NCBI GenBank assembly: GCA_028286725.1
Contig: JAQBQZ010000009.1
Span: 1,408 to 65,407 of the forward strand
DNA: 64,000 nucleotides
Reading direction: 5' to 3'
Source of the DNA: Candidatus Tayloriibacteriota bacterium
Lineage (GTDB): Bacteria; Patescibacteriota; Minisyncoccia; Phycocordibacterales; CAIRYW01
Positions 24,594 to 46,169 of the stretch are shown piece by piece; the stretch's first letter is position 1; each line of letters begins with the position of its first letter. The position numbers and the translations under genes were made by a program. The notes under the pieces are model-generated. The model worked only from the letters and a program-made list of their open reading frames with translations, did not search any database and was not told the DNA's origin.

Positions 24594-24674
24594 GCCCGGG
24601 TGACGAAATGGTAAACGTACTCGACTCAAAATCGAGCGCCGCAAGGCTTGGGAGTTCAAGTCTCCCCCCGGGCA
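24594..24674 (+). tRNA. tRNA-Leu (anticodon CAA), long variable arm
   Basis: Acceptor GCCCGGG/CCCGGGC, anticodon stem-loop CTCGA-CTCAAAA-TCGAG, variable arm CGCCGCAAGGCTTG and T-loop GGAGTTCAAGTCTCC. Confidence 0.8.
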
Positions 24675-24729
24675 CAAAATACAAAAAACAGAGAAATAAT
24701 TTCTCTGTTTTTTGTATTTTGTGCCCGGG
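24667..24729. repeat. 63-bp perfect palindrome overlapping the tRNA-Leu(CAA) 3' end
   Basis: CCCGGGCACAAAATACAAAAAACAGAGAAAT / ATTTCTCTGTTTTTTGTATTTTGTGCCCGGG. It is followed by the short hairpin GAAAGTGCtaaacGCACTTTC and an inverted T-arm copy TGGGAGACTTGAA. Confidence 0.85.
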
Positions 24730-25099
24730 AGAAAGTGCTAAACGCACTTTCGTGGGAGACTTGAAAGGCGCAGGTATATTTCTTGTAGAAACAAGAAATA
24801 CCGAGCCGGGGTCGAGGAAATTTTGATTCGACGGAATCAAAATTATCCGTGACCAAGTCCCTCTCCACCTCTACCTCTACCTGTAAGTCTTAAATCCTAA
24901 ATGATACAATACAACCCTTTCCCCCCCACCCTCGCTATATCCCCCATCTGTGCTACACTTGCTACCTTATCCACTAATCACAAAAAACATGGACGAAACA
25001 ACTACAACAACAGCTACTCCAGTAGTAGCAGAAGAAGAAACTACAGTTCCTACAGAACCTACAACACCTGCACCAGCAGCTGATGAAGTAACTGCATAA

Positions 25100-26020
25100 T
25101 TGTATCTAAACTCTTTTACTCATATGCCAAAGGCAAAACCAAAGATAATATCGATAGTAGGCCCTACAGCGTCGGGTAAAAGTGATTTGGCCGTAATGCT
25201 CGCAAAGCAGTTCAAAGGTGAAGTAATCTCCGCCGATTCAAGACAAGTCTATACTGGACTCAATATTGGTTCAGGCAAGATAACAAAAAAAGAGATGATG
25301 GGTATTCCTCATCATCTTCTTGATGTTGTGAGTCCTAAGAAGGTCTTCACTGTCGCAAATTTCAAAAAACTAGCGAATGAAAAAATAAATGAGATTGTTG
25401 ATCACGGTCATATTCCCATACTTTGTGGCGGTACAGGATTCTATATCGACACAGTCACAAAAAATATTCTTCTCCCCGAAGTCCCACCAAACCAAGCCTT
25501 AAGAAAAAAGCTCGAGGTTTTGAGTCTCGAAAAACTCCAAAAGATGTTAATGAAGCTTGATCAAAAAAGATTCATATCAATTGATCTCAATAATAAAGTC
25601 CGACTCATTCGAGCGATCGAAATAACCAAAGCGCTCGGCAGCGTTCCAAAGATCAAAAGCAAACCTCTCTATGATGTACTCACGATCGGGATACTCTGGA
25701 ATCCAGAAAGTTTAAGAAAAAGAATCAATCTTCGATTACAAAAAAGAATAAAAATTGGAATGATAAATGAAGTAAAGAAACTCAAAAAAAGCGGAGTGTC
25801 TTGGAAGCGACTTGAATCTCTCGGACTCGAGTACAGATATGTTGCGCAATTCTTACAAAAGAAAATATCAAAAATAGAAATGATCGAAAAACTCCAATTT
25901 GAGATCTGGCACTATGCAAAACGACAAATGACATGGTTTCAGAAAGATATGGGTATCAAATGGATGCGACCGACCGAGAAAACAAAAATTAAAAAAGAAG
26001 TAAAAGAGTTTCTAAAATAG
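25100..26020 (+). CDS. miaA: tRNA dimethylallyltransferase
   Basis: P-loop IVGPTASGKS, then DSRQVY and CGGTGFY motifs. The probable start is MPKAK at 25124. Confidence 0.9.
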   Translation: MYLNSFTHMPKAKPKIISIVGPTASGKSDLAVMLAKQFKGEVISADSRQVYTGLNIGSGKITKKEMMGIPHHLLDVVSPKKVFTVANFKKLANEKINEIVDHGHIPILCGGTGFYIDTVTKNILLPEVPPNQALRKKLEVLSLEKLQKMLMKLDQKRFISIDLNNKVRLIRAIEITKALGSVPKIKSKPLYDVLTIGILWNPESLRKRINLRLQKRIKIGMINEVKKLKKSGVSWKRLESLGLEYRYVAQFLQKKISKIEMIEKLQFEIWHYAKRQMTWFQKDMGIKWMRPTEKTKIKKEVKEFLK

Positions 26021-26088
26021 AGGATCGGAACAGAACTGCAACATATTGACCTATAGTCCAACTGCGACTCGGACGATATGTACCCACA

Positions 26089-26245
26089 CTTTCCTTACAG
26101 GAACTGATCATGCATAAATTTCTACTGAAATTTTGCTCGACCCCGACTCGCGTCTTCGCGCTCTGCCTCTGAATTCTTCTAAGTATTCAGAATTCAGCAC
26201 CTTTTGGATCGAGTACTATCTCAAAAGATCTTGCAAAGCTCCACG
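26089..26245. repeat. copy R4 of a dispersed hairpin repeat family (inverted orientation, with about 95-nt nested insertion)
   Basis: Shares TTCCTTACAGGAAC...CACCTTTTGGATCGAGTACTATCTCAAAAGATCTTGCAAAGCTCC with copies at 28417, 39611 and 45988. The insertion itself carries GAATTCAG inverted repeats. Confidence 0.7.
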
Positions 26246-26949
26246 TATTCGCTTTTCACCTCGCTTGTTGGAATAACAACAACGCAGGTCCCCCGAAGGA
26301 AAACTGCGTTGCAGGCTGCTGGTGCTAACAAAACATTTTTTTCATGCCATTTTCGACTCAAAGAGCGAATGGTGGGCAGGATCAAAATGATCAATCAGAT
26401 CAGCGAGGGTGACACCGTATTTTGACAGGTGAAGCTTATCAAGCAAATCGACGAGCAAGAGCTCGCCAAGAGACTTCACAAGGCTTGGCCTGTTTTCGGA
26501 CGTTAAGAGCGATTCCATGTGTTGTTGGTAGCAGTCTGTAATTATTCACACTATTTGAATAATGTCAATAGTATATAAATGACAATGGCGCAGGTCCCCT
26601 GGTTGGAGGAGCCTGCGCCATATTTATCCATGACCTTTTACCACCGTGGTTTGTACTTCTGGGACCCAGGGCGTGCCTGTGGGCTACAGTGTCTCGCAGT
26701 GCGATCCACTTTAGGATTGGTGGCACCGATTGCCGCCAAAGATTGGGGGCATTTCAGTAAGCCTCGCTCATGCAGCCATTGCGCGGCTGCTTGAAAACCA
26801 GGTGATTTAAGATGATTGATGGGAGGAGCAGTGTTCATGTCAGGTGTTGTTGGTAACCGATATATATTATACATATTTATGTACAAATGTCAATATCAGA
26901 CCATTATTACCTAGATTAAATAGCCATATTCTGCTAGAATGCACTGCAT

Positions 26950-27020
26950 TGGGCGATTAGTTTAGTGGTAGAACAAGGCACTCCAAACGCCTAGGTGTAG
27001 GTTCGATTCCTACATCGCCC
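26950..27020 (+). tRNA. tRNA-Trp (anticodon CCA)
   Basis: Acceptor GGGCGAT/ATCGCCC, anticodon loop CTCCAAA and T-loop GGTTCGATTCC. Confidence 0.75.
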
Positions 27021-27204
27021 GCAGAAGGAGCGAAGCGACGACAAGGTTGATAGCAAGCAAACTGCTTTGCTTGCGTGTAGGAATCGAAAGGCTTTTTATT
27101 ATTTAATCGACTGCAAGGAGATTAAATTAAAAAGCACCCGCGACGGTAGTCGAGATTTCCTACATCGCCCGCAAATAATTTTTCAATTTTGATATAACGT
27201 ATCT

Positions 27205-27759
27205 ATGTCTGAACAATTAGAAATGTTAGAGGTGGTAGATGGGCTGGATAACATGATCGGTCTTGAAACTCGTAAAAAAATTCACAAGGACGGACTTCTT
27301 CATCGTGAAATACACATATTTTTTATAACTCCAAAAGGAGAAATCATCTTTCAACATAGAGCAAAAGACAAGGATACTTACCCTGATAAACTGGATGCGA
27401 CTGTGGCAGGACACGTTGAACCAAATATGTCTTACGAAGAAACTGCTATTAAAGAAACAAAAGAAGAGACTGGACTTGATATAAATTCAAAGGATTTAAT
27501 TGTGCTAGAAAAAATGAACCTTCGAGAAGTGGATGAGGCAACTGGACTAATCAACAATACCGTCCGTGTACAATATGCTTATTTATACAAGGGATTGGTT
27601 GAGGATCTAATTGTGGAAGAAGGTAAAGCTATTGGGTTTGAGCCATGGAATATGGATACTCTTTTTACACTTTCTAACAAGGATAAGAATAGATTTAAAC
27701 CCATCGTCATATCCAATAGATTTCTTCTTTTGTTTAAAAAGGCAAAGGACTTAATTTAA
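27205..27759 (+). CDS. NUDIX hydrolase, isopentenyl-diphosphate isomerase (type 1)-like
   Basis: DGLLHREIHIFF...QHRAKDK...PDKLDATVAGHVEPNMSYEETAIKETKEETG. This is a Nudix box arranged like IDI (HRAFS...CGHP...E...RR...EElG). Confidence 0.5.
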   Translation: MSEQLEMLEVVDGLDNMIGLETRKKIHKDGLLHREIHIFFITPKGEIIFQHRAKDKDTYPDKLDATVAGHVEPNMSYEETAIKETKEETGLDINSKDLIVLEKMNLREVDEATGLINNTVRVQYAYLYKGLVEDLIVEEGKAIGFEPWNMDTLFTLSNKDKNRFKPIVISNRFLLLFKKAKDLI

Positions 27760-27765
27760 CCCAAA

Positions 27766-27798
27766 AGAAAAAACCACCAAAAGGTGGTTTTTTCTTTT
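27766..27798. terminator. bidirectional terminator (NUDIX gene and rpmG)
   Basis: AAAAAACCACCaaaaGGTGGTTTTTT. Confidence 0.75.
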
Positions 27799-27802
27799 GA
27801 AA

Positions 27803-27958
27803 TTATTTCTTCGCTTCTTTGAAAGTGATGTGCTTTCGGAGTTTCTTTGAGAATTTCTTGAGCTCAATCTTTCTCTGGACACCCTTTTTGTTCTTTCGAG
27901 AGTAGTATACCTCGCCTGTTTCTTTGTTTTTTAATATAAGTAGATTATCCTGTGACAT
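27803..27958 (-). CDS. rpmG: 50S ribosomal protein L33
   Basis: 51-aa ORF MSQDNLLILKNKETGEVYYSRKNKKGVQRKIELKKFSKKLRKHITFKEAKK. It matches the L33 pattern (Y-T-KNK-N...LELKKY...LRKH...KE-K). It is absent from the ORF track because it is under 60 aa. Confidence 0.8.
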   Translation of the reverse strand: MSQDNLLILKNKETGEVYYSRKNKKGVQRKIELKKFSKKLRKHITFKEAKK

Positions 27959-28067
27959 ATATGTATTTATTTAATGTCTGATGATTATAGCTCAATATAT
28001 CCAAAAAAGCAATTCGAGCCTTAATTGTTTACTCACCCCCCTTTTTGTGATATTCTCTATCGATAAT

Positions 28068-28150
28068 GCGTAGGTGGTAGAGCGGTCAATTACAAGAGAC
28101 TGTAAATCTCTCGCCTTCGGGCTACACAGGTTCGAATCCTGTCCTACGCA
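28068..28150 (+). tRNA. tRNA-Tyr (anticodon GTA), long variable arm
   Basis: Acceptor GCGTAGG/CCTACGC, anticodon stem-loop AGAGA-CTGTAAA-TCTCT and T-loop GGTTCGAATCC. Confidence 0.75.
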
Positions 28151-28209
28151 CAAAATATGAAAAAACCTGAAGCAAGTTTGCTTCAGGTTTTTTCATATTT
28201 TGTGCGTAG
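28144..28209. repeat. 66-bp perfect palindrome overlapping the tRNA-Tyr 3' end
   Basis: CTACGCACAAAATATGAAAAAACCTGAAGCAAG / TTGCTTCAGGTTTTTTCATATTTTGTGCGTAG. Followed by GAAAGTGCtaaatGCACTTTT and GGACAGGATTTGAAGCC (inverted T-arm-like). Two more degenerate direct copies of the tRNA 3' half lie at 28311-28330 and 28380-28399. Confidence 0.85.
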
Positions 28210-28416
28210 AGAAAGTGCTAAATGCACTTTTGGACAGGATTTGAAGCCCGATTGAGCATAATTTGTGAGGTATCGAAACAAATTATCCAATCGGGATATT
28301 GACCCTGTAAGGGTCGAATATCCTGTCTGATCGAACGGAGAGTAAGATATTTGTGATCAAATACTATCAATCTAGTCGAGGTCGAAACTCCTGTCCTGAT
28401 TTTTACTTCTTCTCTT

Positions 28417-28470
28417 CCTTACAGGAACAGTACACCTTTTGGATTGACTACAATCTCAAAAGGTCTTGCG
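28417..28470. repeat. copy R1 of the dispersed hairpin repeat family (abuts/overlaps the clpB 3' end)
   Basis: CCTTACAGGAACAGTACACCTTTTGGATTGACTACAATCTCAAAAGGTCTTGCGC is the reverse complement of the core seen at 45988-46057 and 39611-39675. Confidence 0.75.
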
Positions 28471-31170
28471 CTCGGGTCCCGATCCCGAGCTCACCTTCCC
28501 ATTCCTTGAGAAAAATTCCTCTCCAATAATATTCCCCTTTCTCCCCTTCTTCACATCAAAAACGAGTTCTTTGTTTTTGAGATCTACATTTACAACCCCT
28601 CCTTTTATAACACTCTGAGCAATGATCATATTCGCTACAGGGTTTAGAATCTTGTTTTGAATAAGTCGCTTTAATGGTCGCGCACCATACTGTGGGTTAT
28701 ACCCTTCCTTTGCAAGATAGTCGAGGGCTGCCACAGAGAGCGTCAGTCCAATCTCTTTTGCCGCAAGTCTTTCTTTGATAAGTCCCACTTGAATATCTAC
28801 GATCTTTCGAATGTTTTCGTTTGAAAGAATATCAAAGAGGATAATATCATCGAGTCGGTTCAAGAATTCTGGTCGGAAATAATCCTTGAGAGATTCCATC
28901 ACCTTCGCTTTTGCATCGTCATAGTTTTGCTTGTCAGTTTCATCCATTGCAAATCCAATCTTCTGCATTCGATCAATATATTGCGATCCAATGTTTGAAG
29001 TCAAAATGATCACAGTATTTTTGAAGTTCACTGTTCGCCCTTTTGAATCTGTAAGTCGCCCATTGTCCAAGACCTGAAGAAGCACATTGAACACTTCTGG
29101 ATGTGCCTTCTCGATCTCATCAAAAAGAATGACTGAGTAAGGTCTGTGTCGGACGATCTCTGTAATACTTCCCCCTTCATCATGGCCCACATAACCCGGT
29201 GGCGCACCAAGAATTTTTGACACTGCATGCTTCTCCATATATTCAGACATATCTACGCGCACGAGCGCTTTGTCATCATCAAACATAAATTCAGCGAGTG
29301 CTTTTGTGAGCTCTGTCTTTCCAACTCCAGTTGGTCCCAAAAAGAGGAACGATCCTATTGGTTTATTCGGATCAGAAATACCCGCTCGATTTCTTTTGAT
29401 TGTATCAGAAATACTTTTGACCGCCTTGTTCTGTCCGATAATTCTCTTCTCAAGATCCTCTTCCATTCGCTGAAGCTTCTCCGCTTCTGCTTCAAGCATT
29501 CTGTCTACTGGGATACCCGTCCACTTTGCAACGATCTCTGCAACATCAGATGCAGTCACTTCTTCTTTGAGAATTCTTCGTGAGCTCTGGAGCTTCTTTA
29601 GTTTTTTACTTTTGATATCAAGTTCTTTTTCAAGAGTTGGGATCTTTCCATATCTAATCTCTGCAGCCTTTGTGAGGTCTGCTCTAATCTCGGCGCTTTC
29701 AGCTTCAACACGAAGATCATCAAGTTCTTTTTTGACCTCTTTTATTTCTCCCAAAATTTCCTTTTCATTTTTCCATTTGAGTTCGAGTTCATTTGTCGAT
29801 TCTTTAAGATTTCCAATTTCTTCATCGATCTTTAATACTCGAGCCTTAACATTCTTGTCAGTTTCAATATCTTTTTTGAGTGCTTCTCGTTCAATCTCAA
29901 GCCGCATGATCTGTCGGTGTGCAATATCGAGCGCTTCTGGCTTGTTTTCAAGTGCGATCTTCAAATGCGATGCAGACTCATCAATGAGGTCCACCGCTTT
30001 GTCAGGAAGGAATCTGTCAGTAATATATCGGCTTGAGAGATTCACCGCAGAGACGATTGCATCATCAGTGATCCGTACACCATGATAGAGTTCATATCGA
30101 TCTCGAAGTCCTCGAAGGATTGCGATCGCATCTTCGATAGTCGGCTCTGAAACGAACACTGGCTGGAATCGTCGTGTCAGCGCTGGATCTTTTTCAATAT
30201 GCTTTTGGTATTCACGAAGCGTTGTTGCTCCCACAGCTCGAAGCTCTCCACGCGCAAGCGCAGGCTTCAGCATATTTGATGCATCGAGCGATCCTTCTGC
30301 AGCTCCTGCTCCAACAATAGTGTGGATCTCATCGATAAAAAGAATTACCTTTCCATCACTTTTTTCAATATCTTTCAAAATGTTTTTGAGTCGTTCTTCG
30401 AATTCTCCTCGGTATTTTGTTCCTGCAACAAGTGAGCCCAAATCGAGTGACACGAGCTCCTTATCTTTGAGACTTTCTGGCACATCACCCTGAGCGATTC
30501 GTCCTGCGAGACCTTCGATGATCGCAGTCTTTCCTACTCCCGCCTCTCCAATAAGGATTGGATTGTTCTTTGTTCGTCTTGAGAGAATTTGCACAACTCG
30601 TGCGATCTCAGTATCTCGTCCGATCACTGGATCAAGCTTGTTTTCTTTTGCGAGCTTTGTGAGATTACGAGTGTACTTTGTGAGTGCTTTCATTTTCTTT
30701 GGATGCTGAACATCTGTGACAGTACCGAGCTTTAATTCCTGAACAACACGAAGAACAGATTCTTTTGTGATCTTGAATCTTTGAAGCATTTCTTTTGAAG
30801 ATGATGGGACTTCAGTAGATGCAATAAAGAGGTGCTCTGTTCCGATGAATTCGTCTTTGAGAGACGCTGCGATTTTGCCTGATACTTCGATGATCTGCGC
30901 GAGTTCTGGAGTGAGGTAGATCTGGTATGAAGGAGAAAGCACCTGAGCAGACTCAGGACCTTCGAGAGAATCAAGGAGTGAATCGGTGAGAAGGATAGTA
31001 TCAATCTCGAGTCGTTCGAGGATCGACAAAACCATACTCTCGTCCTGAAGGATGAGAGATGCGAGCAGGTGAAGAGGACTTACATGATTCTGTCCTCGCT
31101 CAATAGCAAGCTCGTGAGCTTTTCGGATGGCTTCTTTTGCTTTTGTGGTGAAATTTCCAAATGGAGGCAT
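28456..31170 (-). CDS. clpB: ATP-dependent chaperone ClpB
   Basis: 904 aa with a Clp N-domain, two AAA+ modules (GEAGVGKTA and GPTGVGKTE Walker A motifs) and a long middle coiled-coil domain. Confidence 0.92.
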
Positions 31171-31380
31171 ATTTTAAATAGTATTTAGTTTATTATTTGT
31201 AGTTTTATAGTATAAAAGACGGAAACCCGAGAACTATCTTAATAATACGATCATTATAGCACAAAATGTGCATTTTCTAAATGACAAAGTCCTGGATTTT
31301 GCTTCGCAAAATCCAGGACTTCTAATTAAAAATCCCACGCAACAGCAAGCTGTCGCGCGGGATCAATGTGTAAGCTTTCG

Positions 31381-31569: not shown

Positions 31570-31583
31570 CGTGTTTGTCTGAG

Positions 31584-31955: not shown

Positions 31956-31996
31956 GAGCTTGAGTTGGGTGGAGTTGTTGGAGTTACGCAAGCAGT

Positions 31997-32130
31997 TTGT
32001 TTCTGCGAGCGTGAAAATGAACCACATAAATGGACCATTTTCACGCTCGCTTTTCTCATTTTATCCTTATTTTGTTTGACGAATAGCTTTCAAAGAACCT
32101 TACTTAACTAGGATAAGTATACACCATATT
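31997..32130. repeat. about 130-bp module (copy 1) containing a perfect 14-bp inverted repeat. It is repeated at 33431-33535 upstream of a second secreted-protein gene.
   Basis: The hairpin is GCGAGCGTGAAAATgaaccacataaatggaccATTTTCACGCTCGC. The shared block GCTTTCAAAGAACCTTACTTAACTAGGATAAGTATACACCAT follows, then an AAAGTCAATACCCC... GC hairpin. Confidence 0.85.
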
Positions 32131-32237
32131 TAGGTAAAAGTCAATACCCCTGAATTTCATTGAAATTCAGGGGTATATAAAAAAAGAGACTCGCTAGGTG
32201 GGTACCATGCGAGTCTCTTCGTAGTTGAAGCCAGATG

Positions 32238-33368: not shown

Positions 33369-33430
33369 ACGGGTGGGATGTGTTGCATTTTGACGGAATT
33401 GACATCACGGATCACAAAGGGGTTTTGTCC

Positions 33431-33535
33431 TTGCGAGCGTGAAAATGAACCACATAAATGGACCATTTTCACGCTCGCAGTACTAACATTTGGCTTTCAA
33501 AGAACCTTACTTAACTAGGATAAGTATACACCATT
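33431..33535. repeat. second copy of the 14-bp-IR leader/promoter module
   Basis: The 46-nt hairpin and the GCTTTCAAAGAACCTTACTTAACTAGGATAAGTATACACCAT block are identical to those at 31997-32130. The AAAGTCAATACCCCTCCTACCGcacGGTAGGAGGGGT hairpin follows. Confidence 0.85.
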
Positions 33536-33606
33536 TTATCACAAAAGTCAATACCCCTCCTACCGCACGGTAGGAGGGGTATTTTGACCTATTTTATCTC
33601 TATTTC

Positions 33607-34995
33607 TTAAGCTATAATCCCCTTTCGAGCAAGATTATCTCTCTTGAACTTTGCGATCATTTCTCGCTGGGTCATACCGAGCTTGGCTGCTTTCTTCTTC
33701 AAGAATACCCACGCCATAAATGCTGACCAAAGTGTCATACCGAGTACGAAAAGGATCATTTTGAGGTTCTCTCCTACTCCTGTATATGGAATATCACTAA
33801 GATATACTCCAGAGGCAAGTGTTCCGTTGTTTGGTGTATTACCACCGTTACTTACGAGAGTAATATTGCCGTTGTTTCCACCTACATATACATTACATGT
33901 CTGTGTGACTGACTGACCACCTCCATCAGTTATTCGTACTGTCGCAGACTTTGTTCCACTCGTGCTAAACGATTGAGTTACAACTGATCCGTTACCATAT
34001 ACATCTCCTGACCACTGATAGTTATAGTTACTACCATTTCCGCCGTTTGCATTAGCTGTGAATGTAGCAACATTATTACCAGATACACTTGCAGAACAGT
34101 ATCCAGAAAGTGATTGGTTGTAGTTGTTGTTAACCTGAGTACTACAATTTCGTGTGATTGACTGACCGTTTGAAGTGATAGTTACAGTTGCAGATTTTGT
34201 TCCTCCGTTGTAGTAAGTATTTGAAACACTAGAACCATTACCATATGCATCTCCTGACCAACTATATGTATATCCTCCATTTCCACCTGTAGCATTAGCT
34301 GTCCAAGTAACAGTCTGGTTTGTCCCATATGATCCACTTGCAGTACATGAACCCTCCAAAGTATTTGTATTTTGCGCTACCTGGTTTGTAACTACGTTAC
34401 AGTTTCCCTGTCCTGCACAAGTGTTGTTCGTATTAGTGACCGTACTTGTATAGTTATAGTTAGTATTAGTTTTATTGCTTAAGAATGAGAGTGAAGAATT
34501 TCCTCCGTAACCACCACCGTTATTGTATCCACTATATCCACCTCCAATTCCTCCATATGAGTATGGCATTACGTAACCAGAAGAGTATCCGTATGATGAT
34601 GACTGAGGATATCCATATGAAGAGTATCCGTATGAAGGAGATGAGTAACCAGTCGAATAAGGTTGACTGTAAGAATCAGAATATCCATAGTTACTTGAAG
34701 GATAGTAGTCGTAACCAGTATCGTACCCATAATTACTTGAAGGGTAATAGTCGTAAGACGAATCAGCCGCATAGTTACTTGATGGATAGTAGTCGTATGA
34801 TGAACCACTTGAGTAATTACTTGAAGGGTAATAGTCGTAAGACGAATCAGCCGCATAGTTACTTGATGGATAGTAGTCGTATGAACTTCCTTCATCTGCC
34901 ATTACAGCAGTCGGAACTACCAAGATCGCCATAGAAGCAACAACAAAAAGTGCTGTTATTACCCTATATTTGATTGTGTTTATAATGTTTTGCAT
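33607..34995 (-). CDS. secreted low-complexity surface protein with PKD-like domains and a conserved C-terminal IPYTG-TM-basic tail module
   Basis: Signal peptide, then 5x SSYDYYPSSNY tandem repeats. There are two YxYxWSGDxYGNGS...GTKSATVxIT PKD-like modules. The C-terminus SGVYLSDIPYTGVGENLKMILFVLGMTLWSAFMAWVFLKKKAAK...AKFKRDNLARKGIIA is paralogous to that of 44439..45653. Confidence 0.7.
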   Translation of the reverse strand: MQNIINTIKYRVITALFVVASMAILVVPTAVMADEGSSYDYYPSSNYAADSSYDYYPSSNYSSGSSYDYYPSSNYAADSSYDYYPSSNYGYDTGYDYYPSSNYGYSDSYSQPYSTGYSSPSYGYSSYGYPQSSSYGYSSGYVMPYSYGGIGGGYSGYNNGGGYGGNSSLSFLSNKTNTNYNYTSTVTNTNNTCAGQGNCNVVTNQVAQNTNTLEGSCTASGSYGTNQTVTWTANATGGNGGYTYSWSGDAYGNGSSVSNTYYNGGTKSATVTITSNGQSITRNCSTQVNNNYNQSLSGYCSASVSGNNVATFTANANGGNGSNYNYQWSGDVYGNGSVVTQSFSTSGTKSATVRITDGGGQSVTQTCNVYVGGNNGNITLVSNGGNTPNNGTLASGVYLSDIPYTGVGENLKMILFVLGMTLWSAFMAWVFLKKKAAKLGMTQREMIAKFKRDNLARKGIIA

Positions 34996-39200: not shown

Positions 39201-39201
39201 T

Positions 39202-39537: not shown

Positions 39538-39610
39538 TTTAAAATCTCTACGAATTCAGGCTTCGCGGGGATTTTTTATTTCCAACAAGCGAGGTGAAAA
39601 GCGAATACAT

Positions 39611-39675
39611 GGAGCTTTGCAAGACCTTTTGAGATCGTACTCGATCCAAAAGGTGTACAGTTCCTGTAAGGAAAG
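39611..39675. repeat. copy R3 of the dispersed hairpin repeat family
   Basis: GGAGCTTTGCAAGACCTTTTGAGATCGTACTCGATCCAAAAGGTGTACAGTTCCTGTAAGGAAAG. Confidence 0.7.
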
Positions 39676-39880
39676 CGTGGACGAGTACTCTCGTACACAG
39701 CGTCCGAGTCGCACTACAAGAGTACTTCTTATTTTCTAACTCACTTCGTTCATAAGAAAATAATGTCGAGTTGGAATATAGGGTTAATACCCGAAGCGAT
39801 GCCGAAGGTCAAAAGTATGAGCGGAGCGAATTTACCTCGTGAGCTCTGCTCCGAGGTCCTTTATATGATATAATTTTGAA

Positions 39881-40774
39881 ATGAAACAATCTAAAACAAA
39901 TTTTACAATCGCAATATTATTAGCGCTTATTTTTATTGGAATTAATGCAAATATTACGAAAGGTGCGGCTGCCGCAATCCTGACACTTGAAAGTGTTGGA
40001 TCGATCGATAGCCAAATCACTGTATATGGTGATCCTTATGGTGCCGTTGAACTTCACTATGGTAATGGTGGAGTAGTGACTCTCGGTAGTACAGATCAAA
40101 ATGGTTATCTTCGAATGGCGGTAAATACAGCAAGCTACAATATTGCCTGCGATCAGACTGCGTACGCGCTCGTAAATGGTCAAAGAACTGCAACAATCCG
40201 ATGGTCAAAGCCAGACGCACTTACTTGTGACAAAACCGCAAGCACAAATGGAATCTCTTTCAGTCAGAACAATATCGTGATGACGATCGGTCAAAGCAAA
40301 TCGATAACAATAAATGGAACAGGAGGATACTCTGTAACCAATAACTCAAGTCCGGTCATAAGCAGCACAATTACAAGCAGCACCTTGAATCTCATCGCGA
40401 ATGGATTTGGAGGAACGAGTATCACAGTCTGTGACAATAGCTCAAGATGCGGAACATTGTACGTGGTCGCAGTGAATGCAAGCGATATTCAAAACGTGAG
40501 CATTAATCAATGTGTGACACCAACGACAAATACCACAACTTCAACTACACCGACTAAATTTGTATTTACAAAACTTCTAGAGATGGATTCAATAGGAACC
40601 GAAGTGACAGAACTTCAGAAAAAACTAACAAACCTTGGATTCTATGCCGGCCCTGTGACTGGAAAGTTTGGACCACTTACAGAGACCGCTGTTAAAAAGT
40701 TTCAAAAAGAATATAAGATCACTCAAGCTGGATATGTTGGTCCGTCTACAAGAGCGAAGCTGAATCAACTCTAA
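39881..40774 (+). CDS. secreted protein with C-terminal PG_binding_1-like domain
   Basis: Signal peptide and a Thr/Ser-rich beta-rich ectodomain. The C-terminus LQKKLTNLGFYAGPVTGKFGPLTETAVKKFQKEYKITQAGYVGPSTRAKL matches the peptidoglycan-binding domain pattern. Confidence 0.7.
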   Translation: MKQSKTNFTIAILLALIFIGINANITKGAAAAILTLESVGSIDSQITVYGDPYGAVELHYGNGGVVTLGSTDQNGYLRMAVNTASYNIACDQTAYALVNGQRTATIRWSKPDALTCDKTASTNGISFSQNNIVMTIGQSKSITINGTGGYSVTNNSSPVISSTITSSTLNLIANGFGGTSITVCDNSSRCGTLYVVAVNASDIQNVSINQCVTPTTNTTTSTTPTKFVFTKLLEMDSIGTEVTELQKKLTNLGFYAGPVTGKFGPLTETAVKKFQKEYKITQAGYVGPSTRAKLNQL

Positions 40775-40826
40775 AGCTGGTAAAAAGTCTCAAAAAAATG
40801 TAAACTGTCACCAGTCCTAAAATATT

Positions 40827-40899
40827 GGTGTAGTGGCGAAGTGGTTAACGCGGCAGTTTGCAAAACTGTTATGCGCCGGTTCGATCCCGGCCTACACCT
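40827..40899 (+). tRNA. tRNA-Cys (anticodon GCA)
   Basis: Acceptor GGTGTAG/CTACACC, anticodon stem-loop GCAGT-TTGCAAA-ACTGT and T-loop GGTTCGATCCC. Confidence 0.75.
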
Positions 40900-40952
40900 C
40901 AATAAAAAGCAGCGCTTTTTAGGTATAGATTCCCGGTCGTATATATAAAATT

Positions 40953-41035
40953 GCCCGGGTGATGTAATGGTAGCCATAGGGGACTTAAAATCCCCAGGTC
41001 GCAAGACCGTGCGGGTTCGAGTCCCGCCCCGGGCA
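40953..41035 (+). tRNA. tRNA-Leu (anticodon TAA), long variable arm
   Basis: Acceptor GCCCGGG/CCCGGGC, anticodon stem-loop GGGGA-CTTAAAA-TCCCC, variable arm GGTCGCAAGACC and T-loop GGTTCGAGTCCCGC. Confidence 0.8.
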
Positions 41036-41090
41036 CAAAATACAAAAGACTTCAGAAATTTTTCTGAAGTCTTTTGTATTTTGTGCCCGG
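41029..41090. repeat. 62-bp perfect palindrome overlapping the tRNA-Leu(TAA) 3' end
   Basis: CCGGGCACAAAATACAAAAGACTTCAGAAA / TTTCTGAAGTCTTTTGTATTTTGTGCCCGG. Followed by GAAAGTGCtaaacaCACTTTC and GAGGCGGGACTCGAA (inverted T-arm copy). The arms share GGGCACAAAATACAAAA with the locus at 24667. Confidence 0.85.
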
Positions 41091-41286
41091 AGAAAGTGCT
41101 AAACACACTTTCGAGGCGGGACTCGAAAAGGTTCTCCCATATTTTTGAGAATGTAATCATTTGAGAAAATGGGAAACCTATACGACATTGTTTTCTTATG
41201 ACTGAAAGGAATTAGAAAACAAGAAGTACTCTTGTGGTGCTGCGGCTGTAAGCCGAGAGTTCCGGTAAGGACCGAGTTCCCGTCCC

Positions 41287-41694
41287 TTACTTAAACCCCT
41301 CCACAACCAACCCCTTTATCTGATCTCTCACAACCGCACTTACTTCATAGCCCATTTTGTAAGGATCAACAATATCCCAAAAAATGAGTTTCTTATTTGC
41401 TTTAATATAATCTGGAATTTTTGATTCTTTTTCCAAGATAACAACGACATCAAAATCAGCTAGCATGCTCGGATCAAAAACAGTTCTTGTATTATCACTC
41501 ATATCGACACCCTCTTCTCTCATCGCCCGAATAACATCTTTAGCTTCTTCTTTATCTCCAATTCTTTGTCCAGGAATACTTACATTAAATCCAGCAGAGG
41601 AAACTTCATATTCAGGATGAAGTTTTTTTAAAAACATTTGAGCCATCTGGCTTCGTCCCACATTTCCACCGCATACAAAGAGAACTTTTTTCAT
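41287..41694 (-). CDS. low-molecular-weight phosphotyrosine phosphatase / ArsC-like family protein
   Basis: N-terminal CX5R P-loop VLFVCGGNVGRSQMAQ. 135 aa. Confidence 0.7.
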   Translation of the reverse strand: MKKVLFVCGGNVGRSQMAQMFLKKLHPEYEVSSAGFNVSIPGQRIGDKEEAKDVIRAMREEGVDMSDNTRTVFDPSMLADFDVVVILEKESKIPDYIKANKKLIFWDIVDPYKMGYEVSAVVRDQIKGLVVEGFK

Positions 41695-43001
41695 TAATTT
41701 AATATTTTTTTCAATTCCTCCCTCACCACATTCCGATCATCCCAAGGAATTGATATGCCACCAATAATCATTGACTGCTCTGCACCTTTGCCAGTGACCA
41801 TCACTACATCGCCCTCCTTGGCGATCTCAAAGCACTTTCGAATACCCTCTCGCCTATCTTCAATCACAAAAAGATTTTGCCCTCGAACTTTACCTACTTG
41901 TAGCGATGCTTTGGCAATATCCTCAACAATAGGTGTTGGATCATCCTCATACGGATCTACATTGGACACCACAACCACATCAGCAAGCCTGCCTACGATT
42001 TCACCCATAATCGCTCGCTTACCCTTGTCCCGTCCTCCACCCTCGGCGCCAAGAAGCATAATTGATTTTCCATTTTCACCTTTAAGTGTATTCGCCGTTT
42101 CTGTTGCATAAGTCATACTCTCCTTTTCGTGAGCATAATCTACAAACACTCTAAAGTTCTGTCCTTCTTTTATTTCTTCCATTCGTCCCGGAATAATACT
42201 CAAGTGCTCGATCGCTTTTTTTGCTCGCTCGTGACCAATACCAAAGAGTTTGCCGACAACGATCGCAGGCAATGCATTATAGACATTAAATGTTCCCGGG
42301 ATTGAAATTGAATATTTATGATTATGTAATTCAAAATCAACACCGTTTTTGCTCGGAGTAATATTCTCTGCTTTGTTTTGGCTTTGAAGATTAATACTGA
42401 ACGATTCTTTATTATCTGCATCAAACGATAAATAGTATGATGAATGTTCACTGTCAGTATTTACAATAATTGTTTTTGGAAACTCCTTTCCTTTAAACAT
42501 TTTTTTCTGTGATTTACTTAAACGCTCAAAAAGCTTACCTTTCATATTTTTATAATTATCAAATGTCTTATGGGCATCAATATGCTCTGGAGTAAGGTTC
42601 GTAAATATTGCAATATCATAATCAATCCCGATATGACGATATTGAGCAATACCTTGTGATGTTGTTTCAACGATCGCACATTCACAATCCTCAGATACCA
42701 TTCGTCGAAGGAATTTTTGGATAACAAATCTTCCAGGCATTGTCATATGAAAAGGATTCAATAATTCTTCATTACCGATTCGGACATTTGCAGTGGTAAT
42801 GATCCCTGTTTTTATACCGCTTTGATTCAACACTGACCAAATAAAGTTAATGGCGGAAGTCTTGCCTTTTGTTCCAGTCACCCCAATCACAATCATTTTC
42901 TTTGAAGGGAATCCGTATACAAAAGATGCAAAAAGTGCAGTCAGATAATGATAGTAAGAGAAAAATTTCTGTGGAACTATTTTTCTAATTAAAGATTTCA
43001 T
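41694..43001 (-). CDS. Mur ligase family protein (MurE-like UDP-N-acetylmuramoyl-peptide ligase), N-terminal TM
   Basis: ATP-binding P-loop VIGVTGTKGKTS and the Mur_ligase middle and C-terminal domains (TFNVYNALPAIVVG). Which amino acid is added cannot be told from sequence alone. Confidence 0.7.
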   Translation of the reverse strand: MKSLIRKIVPQKFFSYYHYLTALFASFVYGFPSKKMIVIGVTGTKGKTSAINFIWSVLNQSGIKTGIITTANVRIGNEELLNPFHMTMPGRFVIQKFLRRMVSEDCECAIVETTSQGIAQYRHIGIDYDIAIFTNLTPEHIDAHKTFDNYKNMKGKLFERLSKSQKKMFKGKEFPKTIIVNTDSEHSSYYLSFDADNKESFSINLQSQNKAENITPSKNGVDFELHNHKYSISIPGTFNVYNALPAIVVGKLFGIGHERAKKAIEHLSIIPGRMEEIKEGQNFRVFVDYAHEKESMTYATETANTLKGENGKSIMLLGAEGGGRDKGKRAIMGEIVGRLADVVVVSNVDPYEDDPTPIVEDIAKASLQVGKVRGQNLFVIEDRREGIRKCFEIAKEGDVVMVTGKGAEQSMIIGGISIPWDDRNVVREELKKILN

Positions 43002-43002
43002 A

Positions 43003-44025
43003 TTAAATATATTTTTTAATTAATTTTCTTGTTATATAAACATAATACCAAAATGGCTTCAATACGAGATCATAGAGTGCCAGATGGTGAACTACTTCCC
43101 CTCCAAACTTCTGTTTAAAGGAACTCAAGCCCTGCCATTTTTTGTTTTCTTCTCCGACCGACACTGCGCCAAAATTATAATATTTTGCACCCATATCTTT
43201 TGCCTTGAGCATCGCATTAAAATGCGCAAGATATGGAGCACAAAGATCTTTATGCAAATCAGAAGATGCTCCAAATACATAGTGCGCTACATCACCTACA
43301 ACAAACACAACATGTGAGGCGAGACGTTCATTTTCATAAAAAGCTTCGATCAAAAATCCTTTGCCTGTCTTTTCAAGTTCTTCAAAATATTATTTGAAGT
43401 AATCATTATTATGTAGTGCGAATCCTTTTAGAACAGAGGTCTGCTTCATAAGTTCCAAAAAAGCTGGGAGTTTTTTTGCAAGATCCTTATCTATAAGAAC
43501 CGTTTTTATTCCTTTCTTTTCTGCAAGACGAACTGAGTAGCGAGTCTTTGAATGCATTGCACTCAGGATCTCTTCAGGGGTACCACTTATCGCTGTATAC
43601 CACTCGTCACGAGGCTGGAAATACGCACCAACAATTGAAGGGGGTAAGGACTCTGTAAAATATTTTTTGAGTGGAATAGAATTATTTGAATCAATAAAAG
43701 TAAAATCCAGTCTTACAAATGCCACATTATTTTTCTTCGCCCACATTGTGAGCCCACTTTTAATAGATAAAATAATTTCTTCTGATACATTAGAGAGAAT
43801 CGGGCCGTAGGGAGCATACCAGTATGTGAGACTTCTGAAGAGCGGATATTCAACAATAAGAACAGAACCAATAACACTTTTGTCATTTAAGATTTGAAAG
43901 TTCTTTATATTCCTACTCATTCTTTTCTGGATCAGGCCATAGGCAAAAGTCTGAGTTAAAGGAATATTTTGACCATTTACTTCCACAAAATCTTTTTCGT
44001 TTGTAATCTCTTTGAGGTGTATCAT
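43003..44025 (-). pseudogene. FemAB-family (FemX/MurM-like) peptidoglycan bridge aminoacyltransferase interrupted by an in-frame TAA
   Basis: ORFs 43390..44025 (N part, ...MHSKTRYSVRLAEKKGIKT) and 43003..43353 (C part, ...GLSSFKQKFGGEVV) are in the same frame. They are separated by a single TAA at 43390-43392, and translation continues sensibly across it (YFEELEKTGKGFLIEAFYENE...). Confidence 0.6.
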
Positions 44026-44114
44026 CGATCCTATTATACTATATTTTTCTGAGTGATCCGATTAGACATTTCTCTATTTTCTGGTATATTTCTAAGATAC
44101 CAAATATACGGCAT

Positions 44115-44188
44115 GCGTCCATAGCTCAGCTGGTAGAGCAGCTCCCTCTTAAGGAGACGGTCGTAGGTTCGACTCCTACTGGACGCAC
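44115..44188 (+). tRNA. tRNA-Lys (anticodon CTT)
   Basis: Acceptor GCGTCCA/TGGACGC, D-arm GCTCAGCTGGTAGAGC, anticodon loop CTCTTAA and T-loop GGTTCGACTCC. The anticodon identity is less certain (G-A at the top of the anticodon stem). Confidence 0.6.
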
Positions 44189-44245
44189 AAATAAAGAAAA
44201 ACCTCAGCAGATATCTGCTGAGGTTTTTCTTTATTTGTGCGTCCA
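44182..44245. repeat. 64-bp perfect palindrome overlapping the tRNA-Lys 3' end
   Basis: GGACGCACAAATAAAGAAAAACCTCAGCAGAT / ATCTGCTGAGGTTTTTCTTTATTTGTGCGTCC. Followed by the hairpin CAAGCgcggggcactTGCTTG and TAGGAGTCGAAC, an exact inverted copy of the tRNA T-arm GTTCGACTCCTAC. Confidence 0.85.
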
Positions 44246-44438
44246 AGCAAGCGCGGGGCACTTGCTTGTAGGAGTCGAACGGTTTGCATTGAGCTTGTAG
44301 TAACAAGCGAAGCGAAAACCGGTGACCAGAAAACTTCTGCGGGTAGCAGAAGTTTTCGAGGTCGACAAGCGTACTCACGGTCCAATTGGAATTAAAAATC
44401 CAGGAGTTCGGCTCCTGGATTTTTATTTTTTACGTTCG

Positions 44439-45653
44439 CTATCTAACTCCTTTTCTCCTCAAATTCTCCTTCTTAAACTCTTCAATTCTTTCTTTCATAG
44501 ACATCTTAGGATGTCCCGCAGGCTGTAGCATTCCTCTTTTAAGCATAAGAGCATATGCCATGAATGCACTCCAAATCATCATTCCAAGAATAAAGAAAAT
44601 CATCTTAAGATTCTCCTCTACTCCAGTGTAAGGAATTTGACTGAGATATACTCCCGATGCGCTTGTACCAATACTTGGAGTGTTGTAGTAAGTCGTATTA
44701 GTATTATTTCCATAATAGTAGTTACCATTACCTACAGTCACATAAAGATTGGCGCAGCTGCTGTAGTTGTAATTATTGCCAGATGAAACATTTGAAGAGC
44801 AGACAGTTATTGTTGCTGACCCAGGATTACGAGCGTACAAGTTAATCGTGTTACCATTTATGCTTGCATTCACAACATAAGAATCAGTACCGTTAGATGT
44901 ATAGTACACATTGTTTCCTCCGTAGATACTGACATTCGCACTCTGCCCCACAGTAAGTGAAATACTGCTTGGATTTATAGTGATCGGATTTGAGTTGTAA
45001 TTGTTGTTACCATTTCCATTTATTGTGACATAGAGAGTCGCACATCCATATCCAGATGAGTTTGCACAGACAGTTATCGTAGATGATCCTCCAGAACTAT
45101 TTGCAGAGAGATTGATTGTATTACCACTTACATATGCAGAGACAGCTCCTGAATTTGAGTTTGATGAAATATAGTATCCGTTACCGTTGCCTCCATTTAC
45201 GTTAACTGTTGCACTACCAAGCGAATTGATGTTGATGTTGTTTTGACTGAGATACACATTTCCACCATTGCTGTTTCCATTATTGCTGTAGTTTGGCCAA
45301 GTTTTTGCCTGAGATTGCTGACCATTTACTATCACATAAACTGATGATCCAGAAGGGATACTATAGTTGTAACTATTGAGAGTAGTATTTAGATTTCCTG
45401 AACTATCAGTTGTTCCAATGTTTGTCGATGAAGGATTTGATGCATTGTTCGGGTAGTAATAAAGCAAAACCTGCGCATTCGGGTCCGCATTAAGACTTAT
45501 TGATACGATGCTATTGTTACCGTTTGCAAGTGCAAAAGTAGGCGTAACAGCCGCTTTTACGCTCAAAAATGGCAAAAATAGAGCTATAATGGCAAAAACA
45601 CTGATAATTAAGGGGTATTTGTATGTATGTTTCATGATAAAACTAATTATCAA
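44439..45653 (-). CDS. secreted Asn/Gly/Ser-rich surface protein with conserved C-terminal IPYTG-TM-basic tail module
   Basis: Signal/TM N-terminus and a long low-complexity N/G/S/Y-rich region. The C-terminus SGVYLSQIPYTGVEENLKMIFFILGMMIWSAFMAYALMLKRG...EEFKKENLRRKGVR is paralogous to that of 33607..34995. A terminator hairpin lies at 44392-44425. Confidence 0.7.
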   Translation of the reverse strand: MIISFIMKHTYKYPLIISVFAIIALFLPFLSVKAAVTPTFALANGNNSIVSISLNADPNAQVLLYYYPNNASNPSSTNIGTTDSSGNLNTTLNSYNYSIPSGSSVYVIVNGQQSQAKTWPNYSNNGNSNGGNVYLSQNNININSLGSATVNVNGGNGNGYYISSNSNSGAVSAYVSGNTINLSANSSGGSSTITVCANSSGYGCATLYVTINGNGNNNYNSNPITINPSSISLTVGQSANVSIYGGNNVYYTSNGTDSYVVNASINGNTINLYARNPGSATITVCSSNVSSGNNYNYSSCANLYVTVGNGNYYYGNNTNTTYYNTPSIGTSASGVYLSQIPYTGVEENLKMIFFILGMMIWSAFMAYALMLKRGMLQPAGHPKMSMKERIEEFKKENLRRKGVR

Positions 45654-45764
45654 TATTGTAAGAGGTTTGTCAATATCAATAAGAAATTTGATCGATCGAT
45701 TAAAAATCGAAAAAACTTAGTAAAATATTGATAAAATCGAAAAATAATATATTATGTATGGATT

Positions 45765-45846
45765 GCTGGAGTGGCGGAATTGGTATACGCGCTAGTCTTA
45801 GGAACTAGTCCCGTAAGGGTTAGGAGTTCGAGTCTCCTCTCCAGCA
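45765..45846 (+). tRNA. tRNA-Leu (anticodon TAG), long variable arm
   Basis: Acceptor GCTGGAG/CTCCAGC, anticodon stem-loop CTAGT-CTTAGGA-ACTAG, variable arm CCCGTAAGGG and T-loop GGAGTTCGAGTCTCC. Confidence 0.8.
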
Positions 45847-45987
45847 CAAAAAATGACCCCGAAAGGGGTCTATTTTTATGTCTGCTGGAGAGGAGACTCG
45901 AAGGGCGCAGCACACCGAAGTTTACGAGGTCTGAATTCAGCAGAATTCAGAAGCGAGGAGGGGTGAGCTCGGGATTGGGACCCGAGT

Positions 45988-46057
45988 GCAAGACCTTTTG
46001 AGATACAATCGAGCTTGCGAGATTTTATCCAAAAGGTGTACTGCTCCTGTATGGAGG
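45988..46057. repeat. copy R2 of the dispersed hairpin repeat family (includes a duplicate of the clpB 3' end)
   Basis: GGTGAGCTCGGGATTGGGACCCGAGTGCAAGACCTTTTGAGAT...ATCCAAAAGGTGTACTGCTCCTGTATGGAGG. The first part is the reverse complement of the last clpB codons at 28456-28495. Confidence 0.75.
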
Positions 46058-46169
46058 CGATTTGCGACGGCGAGTAAAATATTCGTGACCGAGTCTCCTC
46101 TCCAGTCTACGGACCTACACCCATCCCCCCCCCAAAAAAAAATAACACCTCTCGGTGTTATTTTTTTCT

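Follow-up and report, generated by a model that had tools for sequence, protein, structure and literature searches.

Several tRNA genes of a Candidatus Tayloriibacteriota bacterium run directly into long palindromes that are followed by an inverted copy of the tRNA's own 3' half, raising the question of whether they are trailed by an elaborate terminator or by something that has been inserted. The genes lie in a 64,000-nucleotide (nt) stretch of DNA, referred to here as the window (assembly GCA_028286725.1, contig JAQBQZ010000009.1, positions 1,408 to 65,407). A sequence-only reading of the window had offered two interpretations, elements targeting tRNA 3' ends or a structure for tRNA 3' processing or termination. 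We find that six tRNA genes of this genome carry behind them a protein-less element composed of a folded core, an antisense segment, and a duplicated tRNA 3' end. On balance we favor the view that they belong to a family of non-coding insertion elements, site-specific and about 100-260 nt long, located at the 3' ends of tRNA and transfer-messenger RNA (tmRNA) genes in Patescibacteria. As far as we have checked they may be so far undescribed; a literature search found no description of such elements, although it was incomplete and is thus weak evidence. The six tRNA genes and the elements behind them are as follows.

24594-24675, plus strand: tRNA-Leu(CAA), host of element 1, no CCA encoded (ARAGORN, Rfam tRNA)
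24667-24729, plus strand: element 1, perfect palindrome of 31+31 nt, arms 24667-24697 and 24699-24729
24731-24751, plus strand: element 1, small hairpin SL0, GAAAGTGC-TAAAC-GCACTTTC
24752-24765, plus strand: element 1, antisense of the T-stem 3' strand and T-loop, GTGGGAGACTTGAA, 12 nt exact, ending TTGAA
24766-24854, plus strand: element 1, type-A core, AGGCGCAG-SL1-CGAGCCGGGGTCGAG-SL2-CCGTGACC (covariance model 24755-24863, 102 bits; consensus structure)
24855-24869, plus strand: element 1, decayed direct copy of the tRNA-Leu 3' end, AAGTCCCTCTCCACC
26951-27022, plus strand: tRNA-Trp, host of element 2 (ARAGORN)
27023-27156, plus strand: element 2
27157-27173, plus strand: element 2, perfect 17-nt direct repeat of the tRNA-Trp 3' end, TTCCTACATCGCCCGCA, identical to 27007-27023
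28068-28151, plus strand: tRNA-Tyr, host of element 3 (ARAGORN)
28144-28397, plus strand: element 3 (covariance model 28267-28367, 17.9 bits)
40953-41036, plus strand: tRNA-Leu(TAA), host of element 4 (ARAGORN)
41029-41288, plus strand: element 4
44115-44188, plus strand: tRNA-Lys(CTT), host of element 5 (ARAGORN)
44180-44383, plus strand: element 5 (covariance model, 25.7 bits)
45765-45847, plus strand: tRNA-Leu(TAG), host of element 6 (ARAGORN)
45848-46089, plus strand: element 6 (covariance model, 13.2 bits)
46090-46105, plus strand: element 6, perfect 16-nt direct repeat of the tRNA-Leu(TAG) 3' end from T-loop C56, CGAGTCTCCTCTCCAG

ARAGORN and Rfam identify eight tRNA genes in the window, seven of them on the plus strand between 24.5 and 45.9 kb. 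The sequence-only reading had placed its pattern at tRNA-Leu(CAA) (24594), tRNA-Tyr (28068), tRNA-Leu(TAA) (40953), tRNA-Lys (44115), and tRNA-Leu(TAG) (45765); ARAGORN bears out these positions and all five loci hold the pattern described, with tRNA-Trp (26951) being a sixth that escaped notice, along with the direct repeat, the core, and the exact T-loop junction. Every one of the six loci has a direct copy of the tRNA 3' end downstream, with a conserved structured core between the antisense and this copy. Cognate-specific antisense is present behind six of the seven plus-strand tRNAs, and tRNA-Cys has a plain terminator only. On the minus strand, tRNA-Gln (144-217) has a partial direct T-arm copy, GGTTCGAGTC, 57 nt downstream and no clear antisense, but the window stops 143 nt past the gene, so this locus cannot be judged.

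The inverted copies of T-arm and acceptor measure 12, 10, 13, 13, and 20 nt at Leu-CAA, Tyr, Leu-TAA, Lys, and Leu-TAG, and we compared the match of each with its cognate and non-cognate tRNAs and with 2000 shuffles per locus. As had been proposed, each fits only its own tRNA: cognate matches are 10-20 nt long versus 4-9 nt for non-cognate tRNAs, and none of the 2000 shuffles reaches any of them. The element regions are also much more stably folded than shuffled sequence (z = -8.1, -5.6, and -16.8 for three regions). It might be argued that these are ordinary terminators with chance similarity to tRNAs, since long perfect palindromic terminators are common in this genome. However, the antisense is cognate-specific at six loci with none of 2000 shuffles matching, the conserved core co-varies, the arrangement recurs at no fewer than 120 metagenomic loci, and the junction with the tRNA copy is exact; these results exclude chance similarity, and we give it virtually no probability.

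The palindromes had been described as long and perfect and as continuous with the acceptor 3' strand, and four such structures are indeed present, with 100% complementary arms of 30-33 nt that are 0-2 nt apart, each beginning within the acceptor 3' strand. The arms have a CACAAAATA-type sequence in common, confirming the shared core sequence noted before. In element 1 the acceptor 3' strand is followed by an A-rich trailer, a terminator stem with T-run, and then the mirror image, which ends in the acceptor antisense GTGCCCGGG (24721-24729). The palindromes of elements 3, 4, and 5 have 32+32 nt (28144-28209, arms 28144-28175 and 28178-28209), 30+30 nt (41029-41090, arms 41029-41058 and 41061-41090), and 33+33 nt (44180-44245, arms 44180-44212 and 44213-44245), respectively. 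Element 6 instead has the looped hairpin noted before, GACCCCGAAAGGGGTC with a GAAA loop (45855-45870), followed by a T-run (together 45855-45878). Thus at five loci a stem-loop with a T-run directly follows the tRNA, as in an intrinsic terminator, although this covers only the first 40-70 nt.

Intergenic terminators throughout this genome are unusually long perfect palindromes with 17-23-nt arms and an A-run/stem/T-run organization (for example 3217-3265, 57343-57389, 50782-50824, 10463-10505, and 17935-17971), and many of them contain TGCAC..GTGCA, which is the SL0 stem sequence. Because such terminators, with arms of 16-23 nt, are common elsewhere, the palindrome alone is a matter of house style, and the tRNA-linked palindromes are the longest because they continue into the acceptor antisense. 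The first hairpin looks like an ordinary intrinsic terminator in the long-palindrome style of this genome.

The small hairpin SL0 separates two parts of the antisense, which is often split into an acceptor antisense, SL0, and then a T-arm antisense ending TCGAA. The sequence GAAAGTGCTAAAYRCACTTT, reported previously as a conserved hairpin at three loci, occurs exactly three times, compared to 0.03 expected. In element 1, SL0 stands at the acceptor/T-stem boundary of the antisense, and at other loci stems of different sequence occupy the same position. Hairpins with CUGC tetraloops (..CCTGCG.. or ..AACTGCTT..) are very frequent in the trailers and SL0 of these lineages, as in the trailers of loci L163, L175, L211, L222, L269, L271, and L279 and at 27053-27074 in the window (L-numbers are labels of the stretches and loci compared). 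A kissing interaction of the SL0 CUGC loop with CAGCAG loops of the core was considered and rejected, as the two do not co-occur.

The remaining parts of the elements vary between loci. Element 2 has a trailer with a GCGAAGC mini-hairpin, SL0 at 27053-27074, the antisense segment GTGTAGGAATCGAA (27075-27088) of which 13 nt are exact (TGTAGGAATCGAA), and a variant core ending GTCGAGAT. In element 3, SL0 (28211-28231) and the antisense GGACAGGATTTGAA (28232-28245) precede a type-B module at 28246-28315 (GCCCGATTGAG..CCAATCGGG..CTGTAAG) with a first relic of the tRNA end (GAATATCCTGTC, 28316-28327) behind it; another core-like module then leads to a second relic (TCCTGTCCT, 28389-28397). In element 4, the left 115 nt of which are 79% identical to element 1, SL0 (41092-41112) is followed by the antisense GAGGCGGGACTCGAA (41113-41127). 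Divergent modules occupy 41128-41273, and the direct copy behind them, GAGTTCCCGTCCCTT (41274-41288), is decayed. Element 5 has SL0 at 44246-44267 and the antisense GTAGGAGTCGAAC at 44268-44280; its core (44281-44359) is a type-C variant, and GCGTACTC is part of the decayed copy at 44360-44383. The antisense of element 6 is an unbroken 20 nt, TGCTGGAGAGGAGACTCGAA (45883-45902), and its core has a repeat module inserted and ends in CGTGAC. A short conserved insert, (A)AGCGTACTCRCGGT, lies between the core end and the T-stem copy in the window (44360-44383) and in L162, L192, L205, L249, and L278.

To place these loci in context we used two samples. The first consists of 37 miaA-anchored stretches together with the window, giving 38 stretches chosen without reference to the core; the MiaA relatives, from a species-representative genome set, are nearly all labeled as Patescibacteria or Candidate Phyla Radiation (CPR; Parcubacteria, Paceibacterota, or 'Saccharibacteria' bins), and the gene order Leu(CAA)-miaA-Trp-Tyr is conserved among them. 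These labels led us to reject an origin in Bacteroidota, which promoter-like TAnnTTTG sequences had suggested. The second comes from a scan of metagenomes with the type-A core pattern and contains at least 120 loci with 123 core matches. A look-up of exact proteins, meant to find strain variants of the window, gave nothing beyond a 1-kb contig.

Downstream of each of the six window tRNAs, at a distance of 135-245 nt, its 3' end is repeated in direct orientation, perfectly at tRNA-Trp and tRNA-Leu(TAG) and in decayed form elsewhere. In all 36 scorable elements of the T-loop class the repeat begins at T-loop position C56, immediately after GTGAC, whatever the tRNA. Single units have repeats of 13-34 nt and tandem arrays have longer ones, most of them extending 0-5 nt beyond the tRNA (range -8 to +15 nt in single units). 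Type-B cores join at about G53 (CTGTAAG|GTTCGA), and three elements, all within the L221 tandem array, use a second junction site at C72/A73. The site in the tRNA gene is therefore fixed, T55|C56 for the main core type and about G53 for type B, and since the duplicated 3' segment flanks the element the tRNA gene stays intact. SL0 or the terminator is missing from some copies, such as L197 and L243.

The antisense and the downstream copy behave differently with time. Between the window and L003, four substitutions in the tRNA are mirrored in the antisense and leave the downstream copy unaltered, such that the pairing of the tRNA 3' half with its downstream antisense, which had been anticipated, is retained in orthologues with different tRNA stems. 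The decayed copy in element 1, AAGTCCCTCTCCACC, is closer to the tRNA-Leu(CAA) of relatives L001 and L002 than to the resident tRNA, and the Leu-CAA relic CCAAGTCCCTCTCC in the window and L003 likewise fits the tRNA of L001 and L002 and not the resident one.

The succession of sense, antisense, and sense segments invites a purely replicative explanation, a tandem inversion duplication arising by template switching at the quasi-palindromes of terminator and T-arm, with hairpin repeats landing there later. It would account for junctions centered on the terminator loop and the T-loop and for perfect palindromes with spacers of 0-2 nt, and templated correction of palindromes is a known process. 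However, in young copies (L004, window Leu-TAG, L217, and L272) the trailers after the first and the second tRNA end differ, and a simple tandem inversion duplication is rejected for that reason. In addition, the second junction always contains the conserved core, which is exactly delimited, the insertion point of SL0 is constant, and the pattern recurs at dozens of tRNAs, leaving a replication accident as a highly improbable origin.

What lies between the antisense and the copy is conserved in structure. The type-A core reads AGNCNNAG-SL1-CGAGNCGGGGTCGMG-SL2-YYGTGACC, with window positions 24766-24854 as the reference, and a covariance model was built from an alignment of 26 cores (calibrated quickly, so that its E-values are rough). 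Compensatory changes occur in this alignment at 21 of the 30 predicted pairs, with one G-U pair invariant, and the variable N:N' pair of the P1 helix is Watson-Crick in 83 of 88 cores and uses all four pair types. The mean folding energy of the cores is -40.9 kcal/mol on the tRNA strand versus -31.2 kcal/mol on the opposite strand; of 86 cores, 85 are more stable on the tRNA strand, which forms 199 G-U pairs as opposed to 39. The strand-specific G-U pairs and the compensatory changes together indicate that the core acts as a single strand of tRNA-sense polarity, and the G-T wobble asymmetry would fit RNA as well as single-stranded DNA. That the core represents a new RNA motif is well supported.

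Rfam 15 at gathering score finds only tRNAs in the window, and at E≤1 over 24000-47000 and 20 further loci it gives nothing consistent across the elements; the sub-threshold matches are mostly hairpin-type similarities of the palindromes to microRNA models and antisense-tRNA matches, with a few others. One fluoride riboswitch (46.7 bits) at positions 795-880 of L258, about 200 nt downstream of a tRNA-Val element, is probably unrelated.

A structured RNA of tRNA polarity could be a host device, a cis-acting 3'-trailer RNA for tRNA termination, 3' processing, or quality control, in which, for example, the antisense sequesters the tRNA 3' half of read-through transcripts and so marks these for RNase III, or the fold mimics the acceptor/T minihelix for RNase P or RNase Z; such trailers would have spread by local duplication and gene conversion among tRNA loci and not by transposition. 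The element is always in tRNA polarity and directly behind the tRNA, its core structure is RNA-like and strand-specific, the antisense co-varies with the resident tRNA between orthologues, and the split of the antisense into an acceptor part, SL0, and a T-arm part copies the strand topology of the tRNA. The absence of mobility genes from the 30 window open reading frames (ORFs) searched with Pfam also agrees with this explanation. Against it, the terminator upstream of the core speaks against routine co-transcription, and the direct repeats are longer than pairing needs and decay with age.

Distribution and turnover bear further on this choice. Among the 38 stretches the element architecture is found behind about 20 of 66 tRNAs, and the orthologous Leu-CAA, Trp, and Tyr genes in many relatives have plain terminators or trailers, or none; a species-wide terminator with the same sequence at every orthologous tRNA is thus not what the relatives contain, and it appears that these tRNAs often work without the element, contrary to expectation for a host trailer. 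Of 11 covariance-model matches in these stretches, nine are directly behind a same-strand tRNA. Within the metagenome matches listed, 72 of 123 have a same-strand tRNA no more than 600 nt upstream (median 88 nt), representing 34 anticodons, 15 are at contig edges, and the remaining 36 include tmRNA-linked copies and chance matches in GC-rich coding DNA. The tmRNA-linked core was confirmed in L162 and L233. One core type thus serves dozens of different tRNAs, and local duplications arising independently would hardly produce an identical C56 junction over 34 anticodon types.

Comparisons between loci suggest repeated gain, loss, and exchange of units. Tandem or serial units occur in L221 (three units of 134 bp), L166, L164, L184, L179, L246, L191, L278, L010, and L016, and such stacking of whole units is not expected of a host trailer. 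Similar cores are found at different tRNAs, with the window Lys and L003 Tyr cores being 83% identical and the window Tyr element resembling those behind Leu-CAA in L001 and L004 and behind Trp in L005. Conversely, the same tRNA in close relatives can have different core types, Leu-CAA being followed by a type-B core in the closest relative, L001, and by a type-A core in the window, which also argues against a host function. L008 and L010 have an identical tRNA-Tyr 3' end and share an older element that is about 97% identical, yet L010 has an extra block of about 175 nt adjoining tRNA-Tyr where L008 has a different 58 nt; the block contains a terminator, acceptor antisense, SL0, T-arm antisense, a type-C core, and a tRNA-end copy. 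Units with perfect repeats in L171, L004, L016, and L245 have an antisense mismatched to the resident tRNA that would suit a different one, and they look like possible jumps between tRNAs. These comparisons show that units are gained and lost at orthologous sites and accumulate in tandem, the newest adjoining the tRNA.

Of the two interpretations offered at the outset, the one of elements targeting tRNA 3' ends is therefore supported, by patchy orthologues, shared modules, tandem arrays, and the unit difference between L008 and L010. The processing or termination structure holds for the first hairpin, but leaves the 100-250-nt core and the duplicated tRNA end unexplained, and the earlier interpretation as a whole is thus supported in part. 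We consider a host trailer unlikely, though still deserving attention.

Integration into tRNA and tmRNA genes is familiar from larger elements, and the loci might be scars of integrase-mediated phage, plasmid, or island integration from which nearly everything has been lost except attL and attR with their arms. The tRNA 3' segment is directly repeated from the T-loop onward, tmRNA is used as well, and a second class lies at the extreme 3' end; all three agree with such an origin, these being reportedly the classical integrase sublocations in tRNA genes. An integrase family, though, keeps to one or a few targets, whereas here one core pattern covers 34 anticodons and tmRNA. Moreover, the architecture is constant and complete with exact ends, unlike random deletion remnants, the downstream repeat junction has no T-stem-like left arm, and RNA-type covariation and G-U asymmetry would be superfluous for att arms. 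No integrase is encoded nearby (30 window ORFs) and nothing similar is present in phage and plasmid collections. We regard integrase scars as distinctly improbable.

The window itself contains two further copies of the core family, which adjoin no tRNA.

26040-26290, minus strand: core-family copy without adjoining tRNA, closing stem TTCCAAC/GTTGGA (covariance model 26097-26179, 41.9 bits)
39573-39790, plus strand: related module array downstream of infB, closing stem TTCCAAC/GTTGGAA

The first follows a hairpin downstream of a small minus-strand ORF and has orthologous matches in L001 and L002; the second shares with it an 83-nt stretch with 94% identity. Another repeated module, ..CACCTTTTGGAT..ATCTCAAAAGGTCTTGC..GCTCGGGTCCC.., occurs in both orientations (28411-28495, 45962-46060, 39619-39673, and 26198-26234), one copy lying within the Leu-TAG element and another overlapping the 3' end of the clpB ORF (stop at 28456).

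The two copies away from tRNAs count against the view that these are insertion elements at tRNA 3' ends, as do several other observations. The metagenomic loci were picked by the core pattern itself and are not an unbiased sample, and about a third of the metagenome matches without a tRNA are chance matches in GC-rich coding DNA. The case for mobility is entirely comparative, because no enzyme, autonomous version, or viral or plasmid copy was found: none of the 30 window ORFs is recognized by Pfam as a recombinase, transposase, or reverse transcriptase; a search of the loci examined for distant tRNA-end repeats after GTGAC gave no protein-coding autonomous version; and BLAST against phage and plasmid collections gave no similarity to the core. 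In viral contigs the SL0 pattern is too generic (over 120 matches, judged to be chance without individual inspection), and the type-B pattern gave three chance matches without structure. In many copies a terminator stands between the tRNA and the rest of the element, so that transcription of the core is not assured. Finally, the match of antisense and tRNA could persist through templated correction within the palindrome at replication and not through selection.

The search for autonomous versions did yield two cases in which tRNA-end repeats enclose an ORF, of 183 and 271 amino acids; by eye, and judged without a library scan, neither looks like a mobility gene, and on the same basis the ORFs enclosed between units in L208 and L223 do not resemble recombinases. 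In L208 (2985-4060) the 183-amino acid ORF, which by eye resembles indole-3-glycerol-phosphate synthase, lies behind tRNA-Ser between two near-identical units that are each followed by the same tRNA-end copy, and could be a trapped gene.

The genes around the elements are unremarkable. Pfam matches among the 30 window ORFs are to housekeeping genes only, including topA, parB, miaA, a NUDIX protein, clpB, a short infB, a Mur ligase, FemAB, gyrA, serS, dprA, dus, and others. An ORF without a Pfam match (33607-34995, minus strand, 462 amino acids) contains five tandem 42-nt repeats at 34646-34884, and related sequence is present in a second ORF without a Pfam match (44439-45653). Stretches of about 55 and 66 nt are duplicated with 91-95% identity at 31996-32151 and 33424-33558, 1.4 kb apart; they adjoin ORFs without assigned function and each has a 20-nt inverted repeat.

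A complete unit has the following order. The tRNA is followed by a short trailer, often a terminator whose 3' arm continues as acceptor antisense, then by SL0, an antisense of the T-stem 3' strand and T-loop ending UCGAA, a core of two stem-loops ending GUGAC, and finally the direct tRNA copy from T-loop C56 to the 3' end or slightly beyond. If the elements are site-specific insertions, as we favor, insertion would occur by a process recognizing the universal T-loop or T-arm, with units being mobile now or recently, and the presence of the target 3' segment on both sides would reflect either its copying at insertion or its delivery by the element. The displaced downstream copy would be a functionless by-product that decays, whereas selection or templated palindrome correction would maintain the complementarity of the antisense to the live tRNA. 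The acting form would most simply be RNA read through from the tRNA gene, where the antisense is able to pair along the tRNA 3' half; the antisense might serve as a guide for target recognition, or pair with the tRNA 3' half in read-through transcripts for processing.

Our confidence in any particular enzymology is far lower than in insertion as such. DDE transposases make short fixed duplications, and integrases have one target per family and move gene-sized elements. The combination of one exact end with a long variable duplication would be better explained by either of two other schemes, target-primed copying of RNA, or strand transfer after nicking of the hairpin loop of the T-arm. A bolder proposal, which we hold only tentatively and think unlikely, is that of a mobile RNA without protein, or an element templated by RNA, for which bacteria have so far offered no described example, with a re-writable antisense guide. 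The core could then possibly be a new self-cleaving or self-ligating ribozyme cutting GUGAC|C, with a guide able to pair with any tRNA or tmRNA over the half from T-loop to acceptor; it would home to tRNA position 55/56, or unit-length and perhaps circular RNAs would be released from tandem arrays. Indirect hints of self-cleavage are the invariant junction nucleotides, the exact 3' boundary, and the tandem arrays of units.

Genes for tRNA and tmRNA are classic landing sites for mobile DNA, and every well-understood case of such insertion, to our knowledge, relies on the integrase of a large element. Here, in contrast, a non-coding folded unit of 100-260 nt sits at one exact T-loop nucleotide of dozens of tRNAs together with an antisense of its target. 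If mobile, it would represent a new way of targeting the universal T-arm, or a host enzyme not yet known that does so; if a host device, it would be a tRNA trailer of a new type, and one belonging to the reduced CPR genomes, in which RNA processing is poorly known. Either way, the core motif merits an entry in RNA family catalogues, and the duplicated tRNA ends matter both when tRNAs are annotated and when prophages and islands are sought by way of tRNA-fragment repeats.

The elements differ from each of the known systems with which we compared them in at least one testable defining feature. They share with the integrative elements that use tyrosine integrases at tRNA and tmRNA genes their location on the 3' side of the gene, a repeat starting in the T-loop that restores an intact tRNA, the use of tmRNA, and serial stacking. 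They differ in being 100-260 nt long without integrase or other genes, in covering at least 34 tRNA species in one family, and in having an antisense target copy, a co-varying single-strand fold, and a downstream junction without a T-stem-like core arm. Structured repeats such as REP/BIME, ERIC, Correia, and RPE, and miniature inverted-repeat transposable elements (MITEs), are similarly small, non-coding, and hairpin-rich, with mosaic modules, many copies per lineage, and patchy distributions. MITEs have terminal inverted repeats that are conserved within a family and a target duplication of fixed short length, whereas here the bracketing inverted repeats differ at each locus because they are copied from the neighboring tRNA, the target is a specific T-loop nucleotide, and the duplications are variable, 13-34 nt instead of 2-10 nt.

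The non-LTR (long terminal repeat) retroelements and short interspersed nuclear elements, including R2 in rDNA and the tRNA-targeted elements of Dictyostelium, likewise combine one exact junction, which here is the invariant 3' junction GTGAC|C56, with a variable 5' junction and a variable duplication; some of their copies also do not have the 5' parts, and co-transcription with the host RNA gene is possible. Unlike these, the elements described here are bacterial, have no reverse transcriptase partner among the 30 window ORFs and no A-rich or repeat tail, and contain an antisense guide. That guide is reminiscent of intron guides (the group I internal guide sequence with P1-P10, and the group II pairing of exon- and intron-binding sites, EBS-IBS), in which an internal segment is complementary to host sequence upstream and alternatively pairs with host-like sequence just downstream, but self-splicing introns are far larger, match intron or ribozyme families in Rfam as these elements do not, and interrupt a host gene that here is complete without splicing. 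Lastly, the sense and antisense copies could fold as a mimic of the duplex target, as in the folded single-strand sites attP(+) of CTX phage and attC of integrons, and they are set apart from these by a tRNA gene target, by the lack of recognizable Xer- or IntI-type sites and of a known single-stranded DNA stage.

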